Part shown: positions 1 to 25,909 of the stretch, in pieces | Position numbering within the stretch: the stretch's first letter is position 1 | How the letters are laid out: every line of letters starts with the position of its first letter | DNA from: a virus | Taxonomy: Duplodnaviria > Heunggongvirae > Uroviricota > Caudoviricetes | Strand: one strand, 5' to 3' | Virus record (IMG/VR): IMGVR_UViG_3300025778_000009 | Length of the DNA: 64,000 nt | The notes under the pieces: generated by a model | Databases searched by the model: none | What the model was told of the DNA's origin: nothing | The model's input: the letters and a program-made list of their open reading frames with translations, nothing else | Position numbers and translations under genes: made by a program

Positions 1-44
1 TTCAGACGAGTCCGCCTCGTGGTGAGGCAAACAAAATTCACTCT
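1..44 (+). ncRNA. 3' part of a Y-RNA-like array unit, truncated by the window edge
   Basis: Ends TCACTCT followed by the array linker GTTGATTTT-AG; internal hairpin GCCTC-GTGGT-GAGGC (14-28). Confidence 0.55.
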
Positions 45-53
45 GTTGATTTT

Positions 54-164
54 AGGTTGTTTACAGCATATTTTTGCGCTTGTAGTGCCGGGTCGTGGGT
101 TCGAATCCCACCGGGAGCTCCTTGCTTCTGTAGCTCAGTGGGTAGAGCACGTAAAAGACAACCT
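54..164 (+). ncRNA. yrlA: YrlA-type Y RNA: circularly permuted tRNA-like module inside a closing stem
   Basis: Closing stem AGGTTGT(54-60)/ACAACCT(158-164). T arm GTGGG-TTCGAAT-CCCAC (95-111) comes before an acceptor-like stem CGGGAGC/GCTTCTG closed by TCCTT, then D arm GCTC-AGTGGGTA-GAGC (133-148). No CCA end. Ro-like gene 1.4 kb downstream. Confidence 0.8.
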
Positions 165-251
165 GTTGATTTTATTGAGAAAAAACTAACCTATTGAAAT
201 ATAACGATTTTTTTATAGAAAAAACTCAATGATTTCAAGGTCATATTTCTG

Positions 252-280
252 TTGACTTTATATCCATTCTATCCTATTAT
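252..280 (+). promoter_or_regulatory. sigma70-type early promoter
   Basis: TTGACT-N17-TATTAT. Confidence 0.65.
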
Positions 281-657
281 AATAATATAAGGAATCGATG
301 AACACTATTATTGTATTACGAGAGGTTAGCTATGAAGCTTTATAGGATCCGTTCTGGAAACCGTTGGTATGTTGGACAACGAGTCTCTGAAACCTTTGGC
401 AAGGATGAAGATGCTGGCGCCATTTTCAGGAATCGTGAAAAAGCAGAGCGTGAGATCCGTTCTCATTCCAAGAACTCTAACGGATACGATTTCACCGATC
501 CTAAGATGGCATGGCGCAAGAAGGAACATGATCGCTGGACTAACGCTGTCGTGGTTGAATATGATCTTGTGAGGATTGTTAACTAGATCGTTACAAAATT
601 TCGGTTGGCAGAATCCAAAATGGTGCTATTCTATCCTATTATAATAATATAAGGAAT
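266..657 (+). repeat. 30-bp exact direct repeat of the -10/leader region (266-295 and 628-657)
   Basis: ATTCTATCCTATTATAATAATATAAGGAAT occurs twice, each ahead of a small gene. Confidence 0.85.
332..586 (+). CDS. hypothetical early phage protein
   Basis: ORF 311..586; ATG at 332 with GAGGT RBS. Confidence 0.7.
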   Translation: MKLYRIRSGNRWYVGQRVSETFGKDEDAGAIFRNREKAEREIRSHSKNSNGYDFTDPKMAWRKKEHDRWTNAVVVEYDLVRIVN

Positions 658-669
658 GGAGATAAAGAT

Positions 670-878
670 ATGTCCGACGCCGATATAATCAACGCGAGAA
701 TCAAGCTTTTCAAAAAAAGAGTCTCTCAGCTCTGGGCAAAGCATATACTACACCAACGTTCTACCGCACTTGGCAAACCCAGTCAGTTTGTGCTCTCACA
801 GAAGCGGAGATTGATGAGGTCAAGGCTTATAGGGATGAGATCCCTGCCCTAGAGCAACTTCTCGCGAAGAAGGATTAA
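670..878 (+). CDS. hypothetical protein, probably frameshifted at the A7 tract 712-718
   Basis: GGAG RBS. The -1 frame reads LSALGKAYTTPTFYRTW...LEQLLAKKD* and ends at 878, next to the following gene. Confidence 0.5.
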
Positions 879-882
879 TGAT

Positions 883-1122
883 ATGAAGCCGTTGATATTT
901 ATTGGTGTAGTTGTTGTTGGTGTTGTGAGTCTCGCCGTTGCAGCTGGTATATATGATCAGAATCAATGGAATGATTTTTCCGCAGCTCACGATTGCAAGT
1001 TGGTTGGTCATAAGAACTCAACTGTTGGCTATGGTTTGACACCGTCTGGCAAAATGGGCACGGTAATCCTTCCTGAAGAAAATTCTTACCTTTGCGATGA
1101 TGGTGTAACATATACTCGTTAA
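883..1122 (+). CDS. small membrane-anchored hypothetical protein
   Basis: N-terminal hydrophobic helix, two Cys. Confidence 0.7.
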   Translation: MKPLIFIGVVVVGVVSLAVAAGIYDQNQWNDFSAAHDCKLVGHKNSTVGYGLTPSGKMGTVILPEENSYLCDDGVTYTR

Positions 1123-1147
1123 TTATATAGGAAATGGAGATAGGGAT

Positions 1148-1345
1148 ATGAAAAAGCAATATCGCATCTTTGTTATGGAATCAGAACGGGGATGGGGTCA
1201 GAGATATGAACAGTGGGATTACGATACGTATGAAGAAGCAAAAGCAGCCATTCATCGAATCAATTCTGATAATACTGCACCAACTGCTCCTGATTGGTAC
1301 ATGCAAGCAGAAGATCGTGTTGAGGTAGTCGAAGTTAAAGTATAA
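1148..1345 (+). CDS. hypothetical phage protein (ESERGWG motif)
   Basis: ORF with GGAG RBS. Confidence 0.7.
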   Translation: MKKQYRIFVMESERGWGQRYEQWDYDTYEEAKAAIHRINSDNTAPTAPDWYMQAEDRVEVVEVKV

Positions 1346-1353
1346 AAAGTTTT

Positions 1354-1545
1354 AGGGTCAGTTCAGCAACCAATTTTGCACGCCTGAATAGCAAAAAAAG
1401 TTGACCCTGTTGATTTTAGGATCTCTACAGCATAATCGCCGTAAGGCACTTTTTTTTGGAGAAAGCAGAGTAGATCCTGTTGATTTTAGATTCAGTTCCG
1501 CAACAAAAACAAATTTTGTATCGAAAACAAAACCAAGTTGAATCT
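1354..1545 (+). ncRNA. tandem array of three Y-RNA-like stem-closed units (1354-1408, 1418-1478, 1488-1545)
   Basis: Stems AGGGTCA/TGACCCT, AGGATCT/AGATCCT, AGATTCA/TGAATCT covary. C(A/C)GCA lies 3 nt after each 5' arm. Identical GTTGATTTT linkers. Ends 22 nt before the Ro-like gene. Confidence 0.75.
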
Positions 1546-1567
1546 GTAGTAAAAATGGAGAAGTGAA

Positions 1568-3001
1568 ATGACTACATTTGCAAACGCCGTTAAGAATCAG
1601 TCTGCACGTACTGAGAACGGTATGATGGCTCGTGCATCTACTGCTAACGCTCTTACTGATCTTTTCTTTAAGATTGGTGCAATGCGTGGCAAGAACGTAA
1701 TTCCAGATTGGACTGCTGCTCGTGTTCAAGATGCTAATATCGCTGGTCGTATTGCATTGTGGGCTCGTGACGTTCGCGGTGGTGCTGGTGAGCGTAAGAT
1801 CTTCCGTGACATCCTTTTGGATCTTGTTAATACAGATCAAGATCGTACACGTGCAATGATGAACAAGGTACCTGAGCTTGGTCGTTGGGATGACTTGCTC
1901 GTTTTTGTAGGTACTGATCTTCAAAACGAAGCGTTTGAAATGATCCGTCAAGCTCTTAATGAAGGCAATGGTCTCTGTGCTAAGTGGATGCCTCGTCAAG
2001 GTGAAGTAGCTGCAAAGCTTCGTACTCACTTTGGTTGGTCTCCTAAGTATTACCGTAAGCGTTTGGTTGAATTGACTAAGGTCGTTGAGACTCAGATGTG
2101 TGCAAAGGACTGGGATAACATTAACTTCAATCACGTTCCTTCTGTTGCTTCTGCTCGTTACAAGAAGGCTTTCTCACGTCACACTGAGAAGTATAAGGAA
2201 TGGGTTATGAAGCTTGTTTCTGATAAGCCAGAAGAACGTGCAGAGGTTAAGGTCAACGCTGGTGCAGTATATCCATACGATGTATTGAAGGGTGTGATCG
2301 GTTCTTATGGCGTAGCTTACGACAAGTCTAACTTGGGTCATATTGTTGCACAATGGGAAGCGCTTCCTAACTATGTTGGTGATGCAAACATTCTTCCTCT
2401 TGTTGACGTATCTGGTTCAATGTCTTGTAAGGCTGGTGGTATTAACTCTAAGTCTCAGACTACTTGTATGGAAGTTGCTGTATCTCTTGGTCTCTACCTT
2501 GCAGATAAGAACAAGGGTAAGTTCAAGGACACTTTCCTGACTTTCTCTGGTCGACCACAATTGCTTAACTTGCAGGGTAATATCCTTGATAAGATCAAGC
2601 AAATGGTCTCTTCTGATTGGCAAATGAATACTGACTTGGTTGCAGCCGTTCAAAAGATCTTGAATGTTGCAGTTGAGAACAATGTTCCTCAAGAAGAAAT
2701 GCCAGCAGTATTGTTAATCTTGTCTGACATGCAATTTGACCGTTGTGCACAGTTTGATGACTCTGCTATGCAAATGATTGCACGTAAGTATTCAGAATTT
2801 GGTTATACAATGCCTAACATTGTGTTCTGGAATCTGAATGCTGCAGACAATGTGCCTGCTAAGTTCAATGAACAAGGTGTGGCTCTTGTGTCTGGCTTCT
2901 CACCAGCGATTGTCAAAGGTGTTCTCGCCGCTGATCTTGATAACTTTACACCAGAAGCTATCATGCTGAAGACAATCATGGCCGAGCGCTACGATTACTA
3001 A
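1568..3001 (+). CDS. Ro60/TROVE-like protein with C-terminal vWA domain (DUF2828 type)
   Basis: RTENG, RDVRGGAGER, GRWDDL, AKWMPR; MIDAS motif DVSGS; SDMQFD; IVFWNL. Confidence 0.8.
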   Translation: MTTFANAVKNQSARTENGMMARASTANALTDLFFKIGAMRGKNVIPDWTAARVQDANIAGRIALWARDVRGGAGERKIFRDILLDLVNTDQDRTRAMMNKVPELGRWDDLLVFVGTDLQNEAFEMIRQALNEGNGLCAKWMPRQGEVAAKLRTHFGWSPKYYRKRLVELTKVVETQMCAKDWDNINFNHVPSVASARYKKAFSRHTEKYKEWVMKLVSDKPEERAEVKVNAGAVYPYDVLKGVIGSYGVAYDKSNLGHIVAQWEALPNYVGDANILPLVDVSGSMSCKAGGINSKSQTTCMEVAVSLGLYLADKNKGKFKDTFLTFSGRPQLLNLQGNILDKIKQMVSSDWQMNTDLVAAVQKILNVAVENNVPQEEMPAVLLILSDMQFDRCAQFDDSAMQMIARKYSEFGYTMPNIVFWNLNAADNVPAKFNEQGVALVSGFSPAIVKGVLAADLDNFTPEAIMLKTIMAERYDY

Positions 3002-3005
3002 TAAA

Positions 3006-3028
3006 TAGAGGGGAAGCATTCCCCTCTA
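3006..3028 (+). terminator. stem-loop after the Ro-like gene
   Basis: TAGAGGGGAA-GCA-TTCCCCTCTA; weak U tract. Confidence 0.55.
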
Positions 3029-3067
3029 ATACTTTAAATCCATAAAAAAATAATGAAAGAAATATAA

Positions 3068-3490
3068 GTGACTAAAACAATTGGATTTACCTGTTCTACA
3101 TTTGATTTGTTTCATGCAGGCCATGTAGCTATGCTTGAAGAAGCAAAACAACAATGCGATTGGTTAATTGTAGGTCTTCAAGCAGATCCTTCTGTTGATA
3201 GACCTGAAAAAAATAAACCCATCCAAAGTTTAACAGAACGACAGATACAAGTCAGAGCTTGCAAATATGTTGATGAAATTATTGTTTATTCAACAGAATT
3301 GGAACTTTTAGAAATTCTTTGCATGCTTCCAATAGATGTCCGTATATTAGGTTCAGAATATGAAAATAAAAATTTTACTGGACATCATCTTAAACATATG
3401 AGATATTACTTTAATAAAAGAGATCATGGTTTTAGTACATCCGAATTAAGAAAAAGGATTGCTAATGCTGAAAATGCCAAGCGGGTATGA
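3068..3490 (+). CDS. tagD: glycerol-3-phosphate cytidylyltransferase-like (TagD family)
   Basis: FDLFHAGH (HxGH), KYVDE, RDHGFSTSELR; stop codon lies inside tRNA-Gly. Confidence 0.8.
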   Translation: MTKTIGFTCSTFDLFHAGHVAMLEEAKQQCDWLIVGLQADPSVDRPEKNKPIQSLTERQIQVRACKYVDEIIVYSTELELLEILCMLPIDVRILGSEYENKNFTGHHLKHMRYYFNKRDHGFSTSELRKRIANAENAKRV

Positions 3491-3554
3491 TGTAGAGGTA
3501 ACCTGTCACCTTGCCAAGGTGAACTCGCCAGTTCGATTCTGGCTACCCGCTCCA
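3481..3554 (+). tRNA. tRNA-Gly(GCC)
   Basis: Cloverleaf; TCACC-TTGCCAA-GGTGA; TTCGA; encoded CCA. Confidence 0.93.
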
Positions 3555-3571
3555 ATTTTTTATGGTGACTT

Positions 3572-4177
3572 ATGGAAGACACTGAAAGCCTAGCTTGGAA
3601 GAATACAGAGATTGAAGATCTCTGGATCTTTGATAAATTAATTCTTTCAAAAAAACTAGGATATATTTGTGGACCAGTTGGCGTCGATGTTCCAGTTCCT
3701 GGAAATTATATTGTCCGACCATGCGTTAATATACCTGGAATGGGTAGAGGCGCAGAAGTAAAATTTATAGAAAAAGATACTTATAATATGACACCTGGTC
3801 ATTTCTGGTGTGAATTATTTAATGGTAGACACATCAGTGTTGACTATAAAAATGGCAATCAAGCACTTGCAGTTGAAGGCTTAAGATATAAAGACAAGAA
3901 TGAGCTTTGGCGTTTTAGTATGTGGAAGAAATTGGATGAAAATATTCCACTACCTTCTATCTTTTATAGCTTGACTAAAAAATATGAATACGTTAATATA
4001 GAATTTATAGATGGAAATCCAATAGAGGTTCATCTAAGGAATAATCCAGACTTTGAGTATAACAACACAATAGCAATTCCTGTATGGAATGATCAAAAAG
4101 ATCCTGAATTGGACGTTACTGGATTGAGATATGTTATGGATCCTTGCTACCATAGAAAAGGATTCTGGATAGACTGA
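3572..4177 (+). CDS. conserved myophage protein, possibly ATP-grasp-like
   Basis: YIVRP..N..GMG, GRHISVDY, NIEFI..IEVHLRNNPDF. Confidence 0.55.
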   Translation: MEDTESLAWKNTEIEDLWIFDKLILSKKLGYICGPVGVDVPVPGNYIVRPCVNIPGMGRGAEVKFIEKDTYNMTPGHFWCELFNGRHISVDYKNGNQALAVEGLRYKDKNELWRFSMWKKLDENIPLPSIFYSLTKKYEYVNIEFIDGNPIEVHLRNNPDFEYNNTIAIPVWNDQKDPELDVTGLRYVMDPCYHRKGFWID

Positions 4178-4187
4178 GGAGGTCAAA

Positions 4188-4688
4188 ATGCATAGACAAC
4201 AAATGAATATCAATCAAGTAGCTGAGTTTATCAATGCTCAGTCTGCTGATACCAAGATTTACATTGGTGGTGATTCAGAACGATTTCTAATAGACAATGT
4301 CTGGCATGCTGACTATACTCTTGCTGTTGTTGTTCACTATGGTGGCAATCGTGGTTGTAAGATCTTTGGTGAAGTTGTTCGTGAAAGAGACTTTGATCAA
4401 CAAAAAGACAAACCACGTATGCGACTTATGAATGAAGTAATGAAAATTGCTGATTTGTATTTGAAGTTAGCAGAAGTGTTGGAGGATCGTCATGTTGAAG
4501 TACATCTTGACATTAATCCAGATGAGCATCACGGTAGTTCTTGCGTTATCAATGAAGCAACAGGATATATTCGTGGAATGTGTAATGTCGTGCCTTTGGT
4601 TAAGCCAAACGCTTTTGCTGCATCTTACTGCGCTGACCGATTGAAGGAAATTTTATATAATCAAGAAAATACAAAAAAAGCTAGTTAA
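4188..4688 (+). CDS. RNase H-like YkuK family protein
   Basis: YIGGDS, RLMNEV, VEVHLDIN, KPNAFAASYCAD. Confidence 0.75.
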   Translation: MHRQQMNINQVAEFINAQSADTKIYIGGDSERFLIDNVWHADYTLAVVVHYGGNRGCKIFGEVVRERDFDQQKDKPRMRLMNEVMKIADLYLKLAEVLEDRHVEVHLDINPDEHHGSSCVINEATGYIRGMCNVVPLVKPNAFAASYCADRLKEILYNQENTKKAS

Positions 4689-25373: not shown

Positions 25374-25378
25374 GTTAT

Positions 25379-25470
25379 GGGCGTGGGTGTTGGTACACGA
25401 GAGGAGCTTATATCTCCTTTAGCGGCAGATTACCGTTCTAGACTTGGTTCGAATCCGAGCGCGCCTACCA
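25379..25470 (+). tRNA. atypical tRNA, anticodon TAT (Ile), long variable arm and reduced D arm
   Basis: Acceptor GGGCGTG/CGCGCCT-ACCA; AGGAG-CTTATAT-CTCCT; variable arm GCGG..CCGT; TTCGAAT. Confidence 0.75.
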
Positions 25471-25826: not shown

Positions 25827-25909
25827 GCGAACGTAGCCGAGGGGAGCTTCTACCTCCTTAGACGTAACTGGAGCTGTAAATGGGGGTTCGAATCCCTCCG
25901 TTCGCGCCA
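25827..25909 (+). tRNA. D-armless tRNA-like RNA, anticodon TCT (Arg)
   Basis: Acceptor GCGAACG/CGTTCGC-GCCA; about 7 nt replace the D arm; GGAG-CTTCTAC-CTCC; 22-nt variable region; GGGGG-TTCGAAT-CCCTC. Confidence 0.7.

Follow-up and report, generated by a model that had tools for sequence, protein, structure and literature searches.

Does a transfer RNA (tRNA)-like element whose arms stand in permuted order encode a working tRNA, or does it belong with the small RNAs that partner Ro60-type proteins? The question is raised by positions 54-164 of a 64,000-nt stretch of phage DNA (IMG/VR record IMGVR_UViG_3300025778_000009, Caudoviricetes; hereafter the window), which lie 1.4 kb upstream of, and on the same strand as, a gene for a Ro60-like protein. 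A sequence-only reading of the window had described the element as a YrlA-like, circularly permuted tRNA mimic and had linked the neighbouring gene to Ro function. Our analysis confirms the permuted tRNA mimic at 54-164 as real and conserved; it is carried on a Y-RNA-like handle and has as its neighbour a gene for a protein with a predicted Ro60 fold. Most likely it represents a variant of the Ro/Y-RNA particles already known, and not a tRNA that works in translation.

Ro60 and Y RNAs form a conserved, still poorly understood RNA-surveillance particle, known mainly through its role in human autoimmunity and through work on a few bacteria. Beside TROVE genes, Y RNAs that contain a tRNA-like domain have been found in more than 250 bacteria and 22 phages; the Y RNAs of Ro60 orthologues are encoded close to the protein gene and on its strand, and one or more of them has a tRNA-like domain (PMC4201824).

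Structure and conservation of the element at 54-164

From 5' to 3', the element consists of a closing stem, an anticodon-arm-like hairpin, a T arm, a closed acceptor-like stem, the nucleotides U8-A9 and a D arm (Table 1). Reading and folds confirmed both the extent of the element and the order previously proposed for it, with a T arm, an acceptor closed by a 5-nt loop with no free CCA, and a D arm, all within the closing stem. Because the acceptor stem is closed, it is also fair to infer, as was proposed, that the RNA cannot be aminoacylated as encoded. The earlier description did not include the anticodon-arm-like hairpin that precedes the T arm; in the window copy its stem has one mismatch and two G-U pairs. 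The closing stem measures 7-10 bp, and in this copy U61 and U62 also pair (partner end A156).

To compare the element with its relatives, we made use of the downstream gene, which has 147 relatives in IMG/VR; 80 of these loci were fetched. A pattern search of these loci yielded an alignment of 16 distinct modules from IMG/VR phage contigs. The architecture recurs ahead of the gene in phages with Ro-like proteins of 61-83% identity. Across the four helices, 98.3% of the alignment cells are paired and 17 of 23 pairs have changed on both sides. None of 500 shuffles matched the observed covariation, and controls with slid partners paired only 33-49% of cells. The closing stem is paired in all homologues (100%; both-side changes in 4 of 7 pairs) and the acceptor-like stem in 97% of cells, with both-side changes at every one of its 7 pairs. 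G-U pairs are present in the helices.

The invariant columns of the alignment are the universal tRNA nucleotides U8, A14, G18, A21, G53, U54, U55, C56, A58 and C61. The CAGCA of the handle is likewise invariant across the 16 homologues. The Levitt pair 15:48 (G138:C94 in the window) is complementary in 15 of 15 cases, as C:G in nine, U:A in four and A:U in two (given as position 48:15); covariation of this pair was also used as an argument for YrlA by Chen et al. 2014 (PMC4201824). The acceptor loop varies among relatives in both sequence and length (3 to 7 nt), with no conserved CCA.

These data bear on the possibility that the element is a functionless remnant, either a decaying tRNA pseudogene or the product of a rearrangement. 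In favour of a remnant, the anticodon-like stem is imperfect, and neither ARAGORN nor the Rfam tRNA model called a tRNA on 54-164 in its native arm order. The covariation disfavours this explanation: compensatory changes have accumulated across the phages compared, and the nucleotides of the tertiary fold are invariant. A sister contig assembled from a second sample also has the element without any change (L211, sample ERZ27271969; 431 nt of the cassette region compared). We therefore consider a remnant extremely improbable. A megablast search of window positions 1-4000 against phage records gave no match, and neither did a search of IMG/VR with an exact 52-nt pattern of the tRNA core.

One related mimic differs in topology (L063 3745-3878). 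Here a separate hairpin precedes the T arm, and the D arm is followed, as in normal tRNA order, by a perfect anticodon arm with the loop UUUGUAA. Thus, members of the family can differ in where the tRNA body is attached to the handle.

Table 1. Features of the cassette locus and the downstream gene. Coordinates refer to the window unless a contig is named.
Feature	Coordinates	Strand	Remarks
Second permuted tRNA mimic	L081 4365-4477; 3' end = window 1-44	+	Immediately upstream of 54-164
Inter-cassette linker CUGUUGAUUUU	43-53	+	3' CUGUU of preceding cassette and U-rich spacer
RNA element, overall	54-164	+	111 nt; called by sequence reading and minimum free energy (MFE) fold
Closing stem, 5' strand AGGUUGU	54-60	+	Pairs with A158-U164; 7 bp in MFE fold
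Unpaired handle motif UUA-CAGCA-UA	61-70	+	UUA 61-63, CAGCA 64-68; adjoins 5' strand of stem
Anticodon-arm-like (V) hairpin	74-90	+	Imperfect 5-bp stem, 7-nt loop CUUGUAG; by reading
Variable-loop equivalent GGUC	91-94	+	C94 = tRNA position 48
T arm GUGGG UUCGAAU CCCAC	95-111	+	5-bp stem; fold, YrlA-model alignment and homologue alignment
Acceptor-like 7-bp stem, 112-118 with 124-130	112-130	+	Loop UCCUU 119-123; no free 5' or 3' end
U131 A132 (U8-A9), D arm GCUC AGUGGGUA GAGC (133-148), A149 (A26 equivalent)	131-149	+	
3' linker CGUAAAAG	150-157	+	Includes A-run conserved in handle
Closing stem, 3' strand ACAACCU, then conserved GUUG	158-168	+	Folds, homologue alignment and cassette census
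Three handle cassettes with non-tRNA cargo	1354-1408, 1418-1478, 1488-1545	+	Perfect 7-bp stems; directly upstream of gene
Gene for 477-aa Ro60-like protein	1568-3001	+	Pfam DUF2828 (PF11443) and DUF7788 (PF25043); vWA MIDAS motif (adhesion site dependent on metal ions) DVSGSM

Handle cassettes and their association with a Ro60-like gene

The handle is made up of a 7-bp semi-conserved stem, a 5' unpaired UUACAGCA(U/A), a 3' A-run and a 3' CCUGUU, and it is common to cassettes with non-tRNA cargo. A regular-expression census of the fetched loci collected 448 unique cassettes with one consensus, UUUU / AGGAUNN / NUU CAGCAA ... AAAA N / NNAUCCU / GUU, and a 3' boundary of the form ...CCU GUU (G)(U)UUUU. 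Note that the search pattern itself fixes part of this consensus, namely the C, G, C and last A of CAGCAA, the 3' G and the complementarity of the stem; among the CAGCAA frequencies (C100 A87 G100 C100 A100 A86) only A87 and A86 are independent of the pattern. Frequencies elsewhere were A100, G99, G82 and U93 for positions 1-3 and 5 of the 5' stem strand, A63 A73 A81 A78 for the A-run ahead of the 3' strand, and C99 U100 followed by G100 U89 U86 for the 3' end.

The locus in the window is an array of such cassettes. Four handle cassettes with perfect stems are present in the window, compared with 0.16 expected by chance. Exact copies of the linker CTGTTGATTTTA start at 43, 163, 1407 and 1477, and allowing up to one mismatch there are nine linker matches versus about 1 expected. 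The second permuted mimic (Table 1) folds into a V hairpin, a T arm, a closed acceptor and a divergent D arm, and a 150-nt cassette with other hairpins also lies upstream of the window. The locus contains at least six handle RNAs, two with tRNA-mimic cargo and four with other cargo. A covariance model built from the 16 modules (R1) matched window positions 1350-1419. In the 80 loci and the window together it found 128 matches, all on the strand of the gene and only one downstream of it; about 30 are full tRNA-like modules, and the others are short cassettes of 52-66 nt that share the handle only.

An inverted repeat bounds each cassette, as would also be the case for an element acting at the DNA level, such as a promoter array, a miniature inverted-repeat mobile element or a recombination site with captured tRNA fragments. 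In addition, the linker contains TTGATT, a -35-like hexamer, and in a variant at 249-260 the hexamer TTGACT has a well-spaced TATTAT. However, the inverted repeats of the closing stems vary in sequence between cassettes yet stay complementary, which fits RNA pairing and not a protein-bound terminal repeat. G-U pairs in the helices, an absolute strand bias in the oriented loci and the covariation of a tertiary tRNA pair also speak against a DNA element, which we regard as highly improbable. The promoter scan lent no support to the linker as a promoter: it called none of the TTGATT linkers, and promoter-like sites numbered 6 against 5.5 expected.

The two cassette arrays of the window are separated by four small open reading frames (ORFs). 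On the 3' side of 54-164, the stretch 176-262 on the forward strand holds an AU-rich hairpin (AUUGAG ... CUCAAU) and, after it, the linker variant at 249-260 (CTGTTGACTTTA, one mismatch). This variant has neither a handle stem nor CAGCA, and its TTGACT forms the -35 element of a predicted promoter. This sigma-70-like site (TTGACT-17-TATTAT) overlaps the first copy of an exact 26-nt repeat, TATCCTATTATAATAATATAAGGAAT, found at 270-295 and 632-657 on the forward strand, ahead of two of the small ORFs (332-586 and 670-852). The repeat is probably a phage promoter with a ribosome-binding region.

The product of the gene at 1568-3001 was not matched by the Pfam TROVE model; PF11443 and PF25043 were its only Pfam matches at E <= 0.01, and PHROG 850 carries the label 'RNA-binding protein'. 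Comparison of its predicted structure with Foldseek returned Ro60/TROVE proteins as all of the 13 best matches (E 1.7e-8 to 4e-5). VIA-align gave a Z-score of 15.4 to the Ro60 of Thermus phage phiLo (9KOP; 389 residues, root mean square deviation 4.7), 12.7 to human Ro60 and 12.0 to Deinococcus Rsr, followed by proteins with only a vWA domain at Z of about 9. In the model, the alignment to Ro60 extends over the full-length fold, a HEAT-repeat ring and then a vWA domain with MIDAS; the MIDAS DxSxS (DVSGSM) is invariant in 25 homologues. These comparisons of a predicted structure support a Ro60 fold. The proposed link of the gene to Ro function thus holds at the level of fold, whereas by sequence the protein belongs to DUF2828/DUF7788 and not to the TROVE family.

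This protein family is large. A profile search of 1.84 billion representatives recovered 7,484 relatives, and the family is present in at least 711 phage records, some of them already annotated 'Ro-like' or 'Ro sixty-related'. Carriers include Felixounaviruses, KVP40-type phages, mycobacteriophages and phages of Listeria, Staphylococcus and Enterococcus. In the sister contig the Ro-like gene (L211 15495-16928) was called as two ORFs, of 261 aa (DUF2828) and 193 aa (DUF7788), which points to a frameshift, a stop or an assembly error in that sample.

Cassettes and gene are associated in position and strand. At least 600 nt of sequence ahead of the gene was available for 69 DUF2828 loci; in 55 of them a cassette lies no more than 1.7 kb upstream of the gene start, and 29 have one that is tRNA-like. 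In most loci the cassettes are concentrated 5-450 nt upstream of the start. In the reverse test, a search of IMG/VR with the handle pattern alone yielded 149 instances, and the closing stem was perfect in 117. Of these cassettes, 46 shared a locus with a DUF2828 gene; all 46 had the same orientation as the gene, and 43 preceded it. Five records had a cassette but no local gene, and three of these, including the only complete genome among them, have the gene elsewhere. We also searched the genomes of four cultured phages with R1 (Synechococcus phage BUCT-ZZ01, KVP40, Felixounavirus BPS17W1 and Mycobacterium phage DuncansLeg). Matches occurred only on the strand of the gene and within about 12 kb of it; in DuncansLeg a tRNA-like module lies 118 nt downstream of a gene for a 'Ro-like RNA binding protein'.

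Handle RNAs might nevertheless be real and independent of the DUF2828 protein, with the linkage reflecting shared residence in the tRNA region. They could then act as free decoys against host defences that cleave or modify tRNAs, or as processing or stability elements of a polycistronic tRNA transcript. Many cassettes do lie among tRNA genes, kilobases from the gene, and the link between RNA and protein is therefore one of genome and neighbourhood and not of strict adjacency. Moreover, anticodon-like loops are kept in several lineages, and in two of the five cassette records without a local gene (30% and 71% complete) a DUF2828 gene was not found. On the other hand, independence would account poorly for the concentration of cassettes just upstream of the gene, for the strand kept throughout the reverse test, and for a pairing that persists in phages as distant as those of mycobacteria, cyanobacteria and enterobacteria. 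In addition, a constant handle with variable cargo is the organisation of Ro60-associated Y RNAs (PMC4201824, PMC12135203). We judge protein-independent handle RNAs unlikely.

Working tRNA or Y-RNA-like partner

We un-permuted the element in silico: the 5' acceptor strand and the D arm were placed ahead of the 22 nt that precede the T arm, and were followed by the T arm itself, the 3' acceptor strand and an added ACCA. In this order 54-164 was called by ARAGORN as tRNA-Thr(UGU). Un-permuted relatives were called as tRNAs in about 14 of 33 distinct cases, with anticodons for Thr, Ile, Phe and Ser as well as UCA, and about 14 of the 33 have an anticodon-arm-like hairpin in the V position. In the lineages called by ARAGORN, the V hairpin is constructed as an anticodon arm would be, and the module amounts to an entire tRNA whose permutation point is the 26/27 junction.

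The element could then be a functional circularly permuted or split tRNA-Thr(UGU) gene. RNase P would open the transcript in the acceptor loop, and trimming and CCA addition would follow; the product would be a two-piece tRNA held together by the closing stem, or one that a phage RNA ligase re-ligates at 26/27. The element has all four arms, ARAGORN accepts the un-permuted forms with several anticodons, and the acceptor loop UCCUU has CC where CCA would begin. There is also a precedent, in that RNase P cleaves M. smegmatis YrlA in vitro and the CCA-adding enzyme extends it (PMC4201824). However, the best-conserved parts of the element (CAGCA, the A-run and CCUGUU) lie in the junction that would be discarded, and they are common to cassettes without a tRNA. 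The anticodon-like stem is imperfect here and about half of the relatives lack the arm, while the acceptor loops, of 3 to 7 nt, have no conserved CCA. The phage has a canonical tRNA-Thr(UGU) gene some 4.8 kb upstream of the mimic, and in the sister contig both tRNA-Thr(UGU) and tRNA-Thr(AGU) lie upstream; the mimic is thus not needed for decoding. Because of the conserved and shared junction, the frequent absence of the arm, the lack of CCA, the imperfect stem and the canonical tRNA, we rate a working permuted tRNA gene as very unlikely.

In permuted tRNA genes of the Cyanidioschyzon merolae type, the 3' part of the tRNA lies upstream of the 5' part and the acceptor ends are joined by a short linker; these transcripts mature into ordinary tRNAs via a bulge-helix-bulge junction and circularisation. 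The element at 54-164 likewise has the 3' half upstream of the 5' half and a short linker joining the acceptor ends. In contrast to that type, its junction is a conserved plain helix of 7-10 bp, not a bulge-helix-bulge, with motifs common to non-tRNA cassettes, and the canonical isoacceptor is present.

A recent duplication of the phage's own tRNA-Thr(UGU) was rejected as the origin of the mimic. The two are 68% identical, no better than the mimic is to Val, Met and Pro tRNAs, and the mimic is equally near to other tRNAs (68-69% identity).

Several other tRNA genes were recorded in the course of the analysis. ARAGORN called a tRNA with the amber-reading anticodon CUA in the phage's tRNA cluster, at L081 3166-3240, 1,194-1,268 nt upstream of the window (program label tRNA-Pyl), and this gene is also present in the sister contig. 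Within the window, ARAGORN called a 94-nt tRNA-Ile(UAU) at 25377-25470 that is not in the Rfam listing, and Rfam gave a weak tRNA match (34 bits) at 25827-25906 for which there was no ARAGORN call.

We conclude that 54-164 is probably a Y-RNA-like partner of the divergent Ro60-like protein. It would encode a small non-coding RNA of the Y-RNA kind whose terminal handle joins the 5' end to the 3' end and may form the docking site for the ring protein encoded downstream. On this handle the RNA would display a complete, circularly permuted tRNA look-alike, which should adopt the L-shape of tRNA and may act as an effector module, serving as a tether or decoy for tRNA-recognising proteins. The cassettes are probably transcribed together with the tRNA cluster and excised at the U-rich linkers: many cassettes of relatives lie directly after tRNA genes, which suggests, but does not prove, co-transcription and release at these sites.

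Several observations weigh against a Y-RNA-like partner, in addition to the distant cassettes and incomplete records described above and the departures from YrlA described below. The single-sequence folding z-score of 54-164 is an unremarkable -1.9, and the case for the element therefore rests on comparison with relatives. On the protein side, phmmer and a 25-sequence profile found nothing relevant to Ro60 among solved structures, and the AlphaFold2 model is of moderate confidence (predicted local distance difference test score 68). Finally, the data show the structure with its conservation and covariation, the shared handle, the association with the gene in position and strand, and the fold of the protein model; transcription, processing, protein binding and cellular role are inferred.

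A more far-reaching version of the proposal can be framed, which we regard as speculative and unlikely. The DUF2828 proteins would form a very large branch of their own among Ro60-like proteins, the handle (7-bp stem, UUACAGCAA, A-run and CCUGUU) would be the code by which RNAs dock on them, and phages would use it to display interchangeable cargos. The anticodon-like loops of the four-arm mimics (UGU, GAA, UAU, UCA and others) might then bait or decoy host anticodon nucleases or other tRNA-targeting defences, and the ring protein might protect these RNAs or pass them to a partner nuclease such as the nearby PF04308 protein.

The PF04308 gene encodes an RNase H-like protein (4188-4688, forward strand) and lies 1.2 kb downstream of the Ro-like gene. 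A homologue is found within 3 kb on the same strand in 24 of the 80 related loci, and KVP40 has its PF04308 gene (KVP40.0299) immediately after its DUF2828 gene (KVP40.0300). The PF04308 protein may be a nuclease partner of the particle.

If the handle RNAs are the partners of DUF2828 proteins, the function of this common phage gene becomes directly testable through known RNA partners. The cassettes would also explain some of the unannotated gaps, and some of the 'odd tRNAs', in phage tRNA clusters.

Relation to known Ro60 and Y RNA systems

Among the papers searched, none described handle RNAs or a pairing between handle RNAs and DUF2828. The closest known RNAs are those of the YrlA family (Rfam RF02553). 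YrlA is defined by GNCGAA(N)G near the 5' end, the presumed Rsr contact, by V, T, AS and D stem-loops, and by the presence of a TROVE gene no more than 4 kb away in the same orientation; the RNA is also described as bound to Ro60/Rsr in vivo and as containing pseudouridine 55 and dihydrouridine (PMC4201824).

In an Infernal search with the Rfam YrlA model, 54-164 scored 33.6 bits (E 4.3e-5 in a 1.6-kb search), below the gathering cut-off of 69, and the alignment was limited to the tRNA-like core. YrlA was nevertheless the best non-tRNA Rfam family for 54-164 and for nine relatives, which scored 27-46 bits; on the modules of the four cultured phages the model gave no match at E <= 0.01. The position of the YrlA motif is occupied by UUACAGCAUA in 54-164, and GNCGAA(N0-1)G is absent from it. 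By these two criteria, the score below gathering and the replacement of the GNCGAA motif by CAGCA(U/A), 54-164 is not a YrlA member. The sequence-only comparison with YrlA was therefore right as to arm order and nearest family but does not extend to membership: 54-164 is YrlA-like by architecture and lies outside the curated family.

The likeness to YrlA is extensive. In both, the 5' and 3' ends are paired in a terminal stem with an adjacent unpaired conserved motif, and the arms follow in the order V, T, closed acceptor-like stem and D, with the same tertiary nucleotides and Levitt covariation. Both are encoded close to a gene for a Ro60-fold protein (here a predicted fold), on the same strand and together with sister RNAs that lack a tRNA domain (as YrlB). 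The differences concern the parts that surround the tRNA-like core. The family of 54-164 has UUACAGCA(U/A) and a 3' CCUGUU in place of GNCGAA(N)G. Instead of an anticodon-stem-like helix between junction and handle, there are unpaired linkers of about 13 and 8 nt, and the V hairpin resembles an anticodon arm in its build. The putative partner here is DUF2828/DUF7788 and not Pfam TROVE, and the cassettes form tandem arrays within a tRNA cluster.

Thermus phage phiLo offers the closest parallel on the protein side. Its Ro60 binds two upstream Y-like RNAs, Yrl1 and Yrl2, and the structure has been solved (PMC12135203; PDB 9KOP, 9L5Y). As in the window, a phage protein of the Ro60 fold is encoded with Y-like RNAs just upstream, and phiLo Ro60 is the best structural match of the window protein. 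In contrast, the phiLo RNAs were found via a CGAA motif in an internal bulge, with no tRNA-like domain reported (PMC12135203), and the two proteins are only 16-18% identical. A second phage protein, gp130 of the Felixounavirus Bas63, is a Ro60-like member of the DUF2828 group and is reported to counter the Ppl defence; the authors of that work surmised that some 'tRNA genes' beside gp130 might be Y RNAs, which were not identified there (bioRxiv 10.1101/2024.10.10.617714). Felixounavirus proteins are 37% identical to the window protein, and with model R1 we located, among the clustered tRNA genes of Felixounavirus BPS17W1, a permuted tRNA mimic that has this handle.

A further resemblance is to the dictyostelid Class I RNAs (RF01414), which have been reported only in Dictyostelia and bind Rnp1A, a protein with RNA recognition motifs (PMC7919456). 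These RNAs have a short stem joining their ends, a conserved 11-nt motif beside the 5' strand (Rfam consensus CCUUACAGCAA), a variable remainder and a 3' CUGU, and at about 60 nt they are as long as the short cassettes. However, the only cassette to match the Class I model was that at 1488-1545, which scored 21 bits where the cut-off is 41.5 (231 nt searched, E 0.096), and the model gave no match on 54-164. The similarity is a resemblance rather than demonstrated homology; to read the Class I RNAs as eukaryotic cousins of the handle family would stretch the docking-code proposal further still.

Set beside these systems, an altered putative docking motif together with a strongly diverged ring protein is what co-evolution of protein and RNA would be expected to give. 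The evidence points to a second, uncatalogued version of the Ro60/Y-RNA particle, with another protein family (DUF2828/DUF7788) and another putative RNA docking motif.

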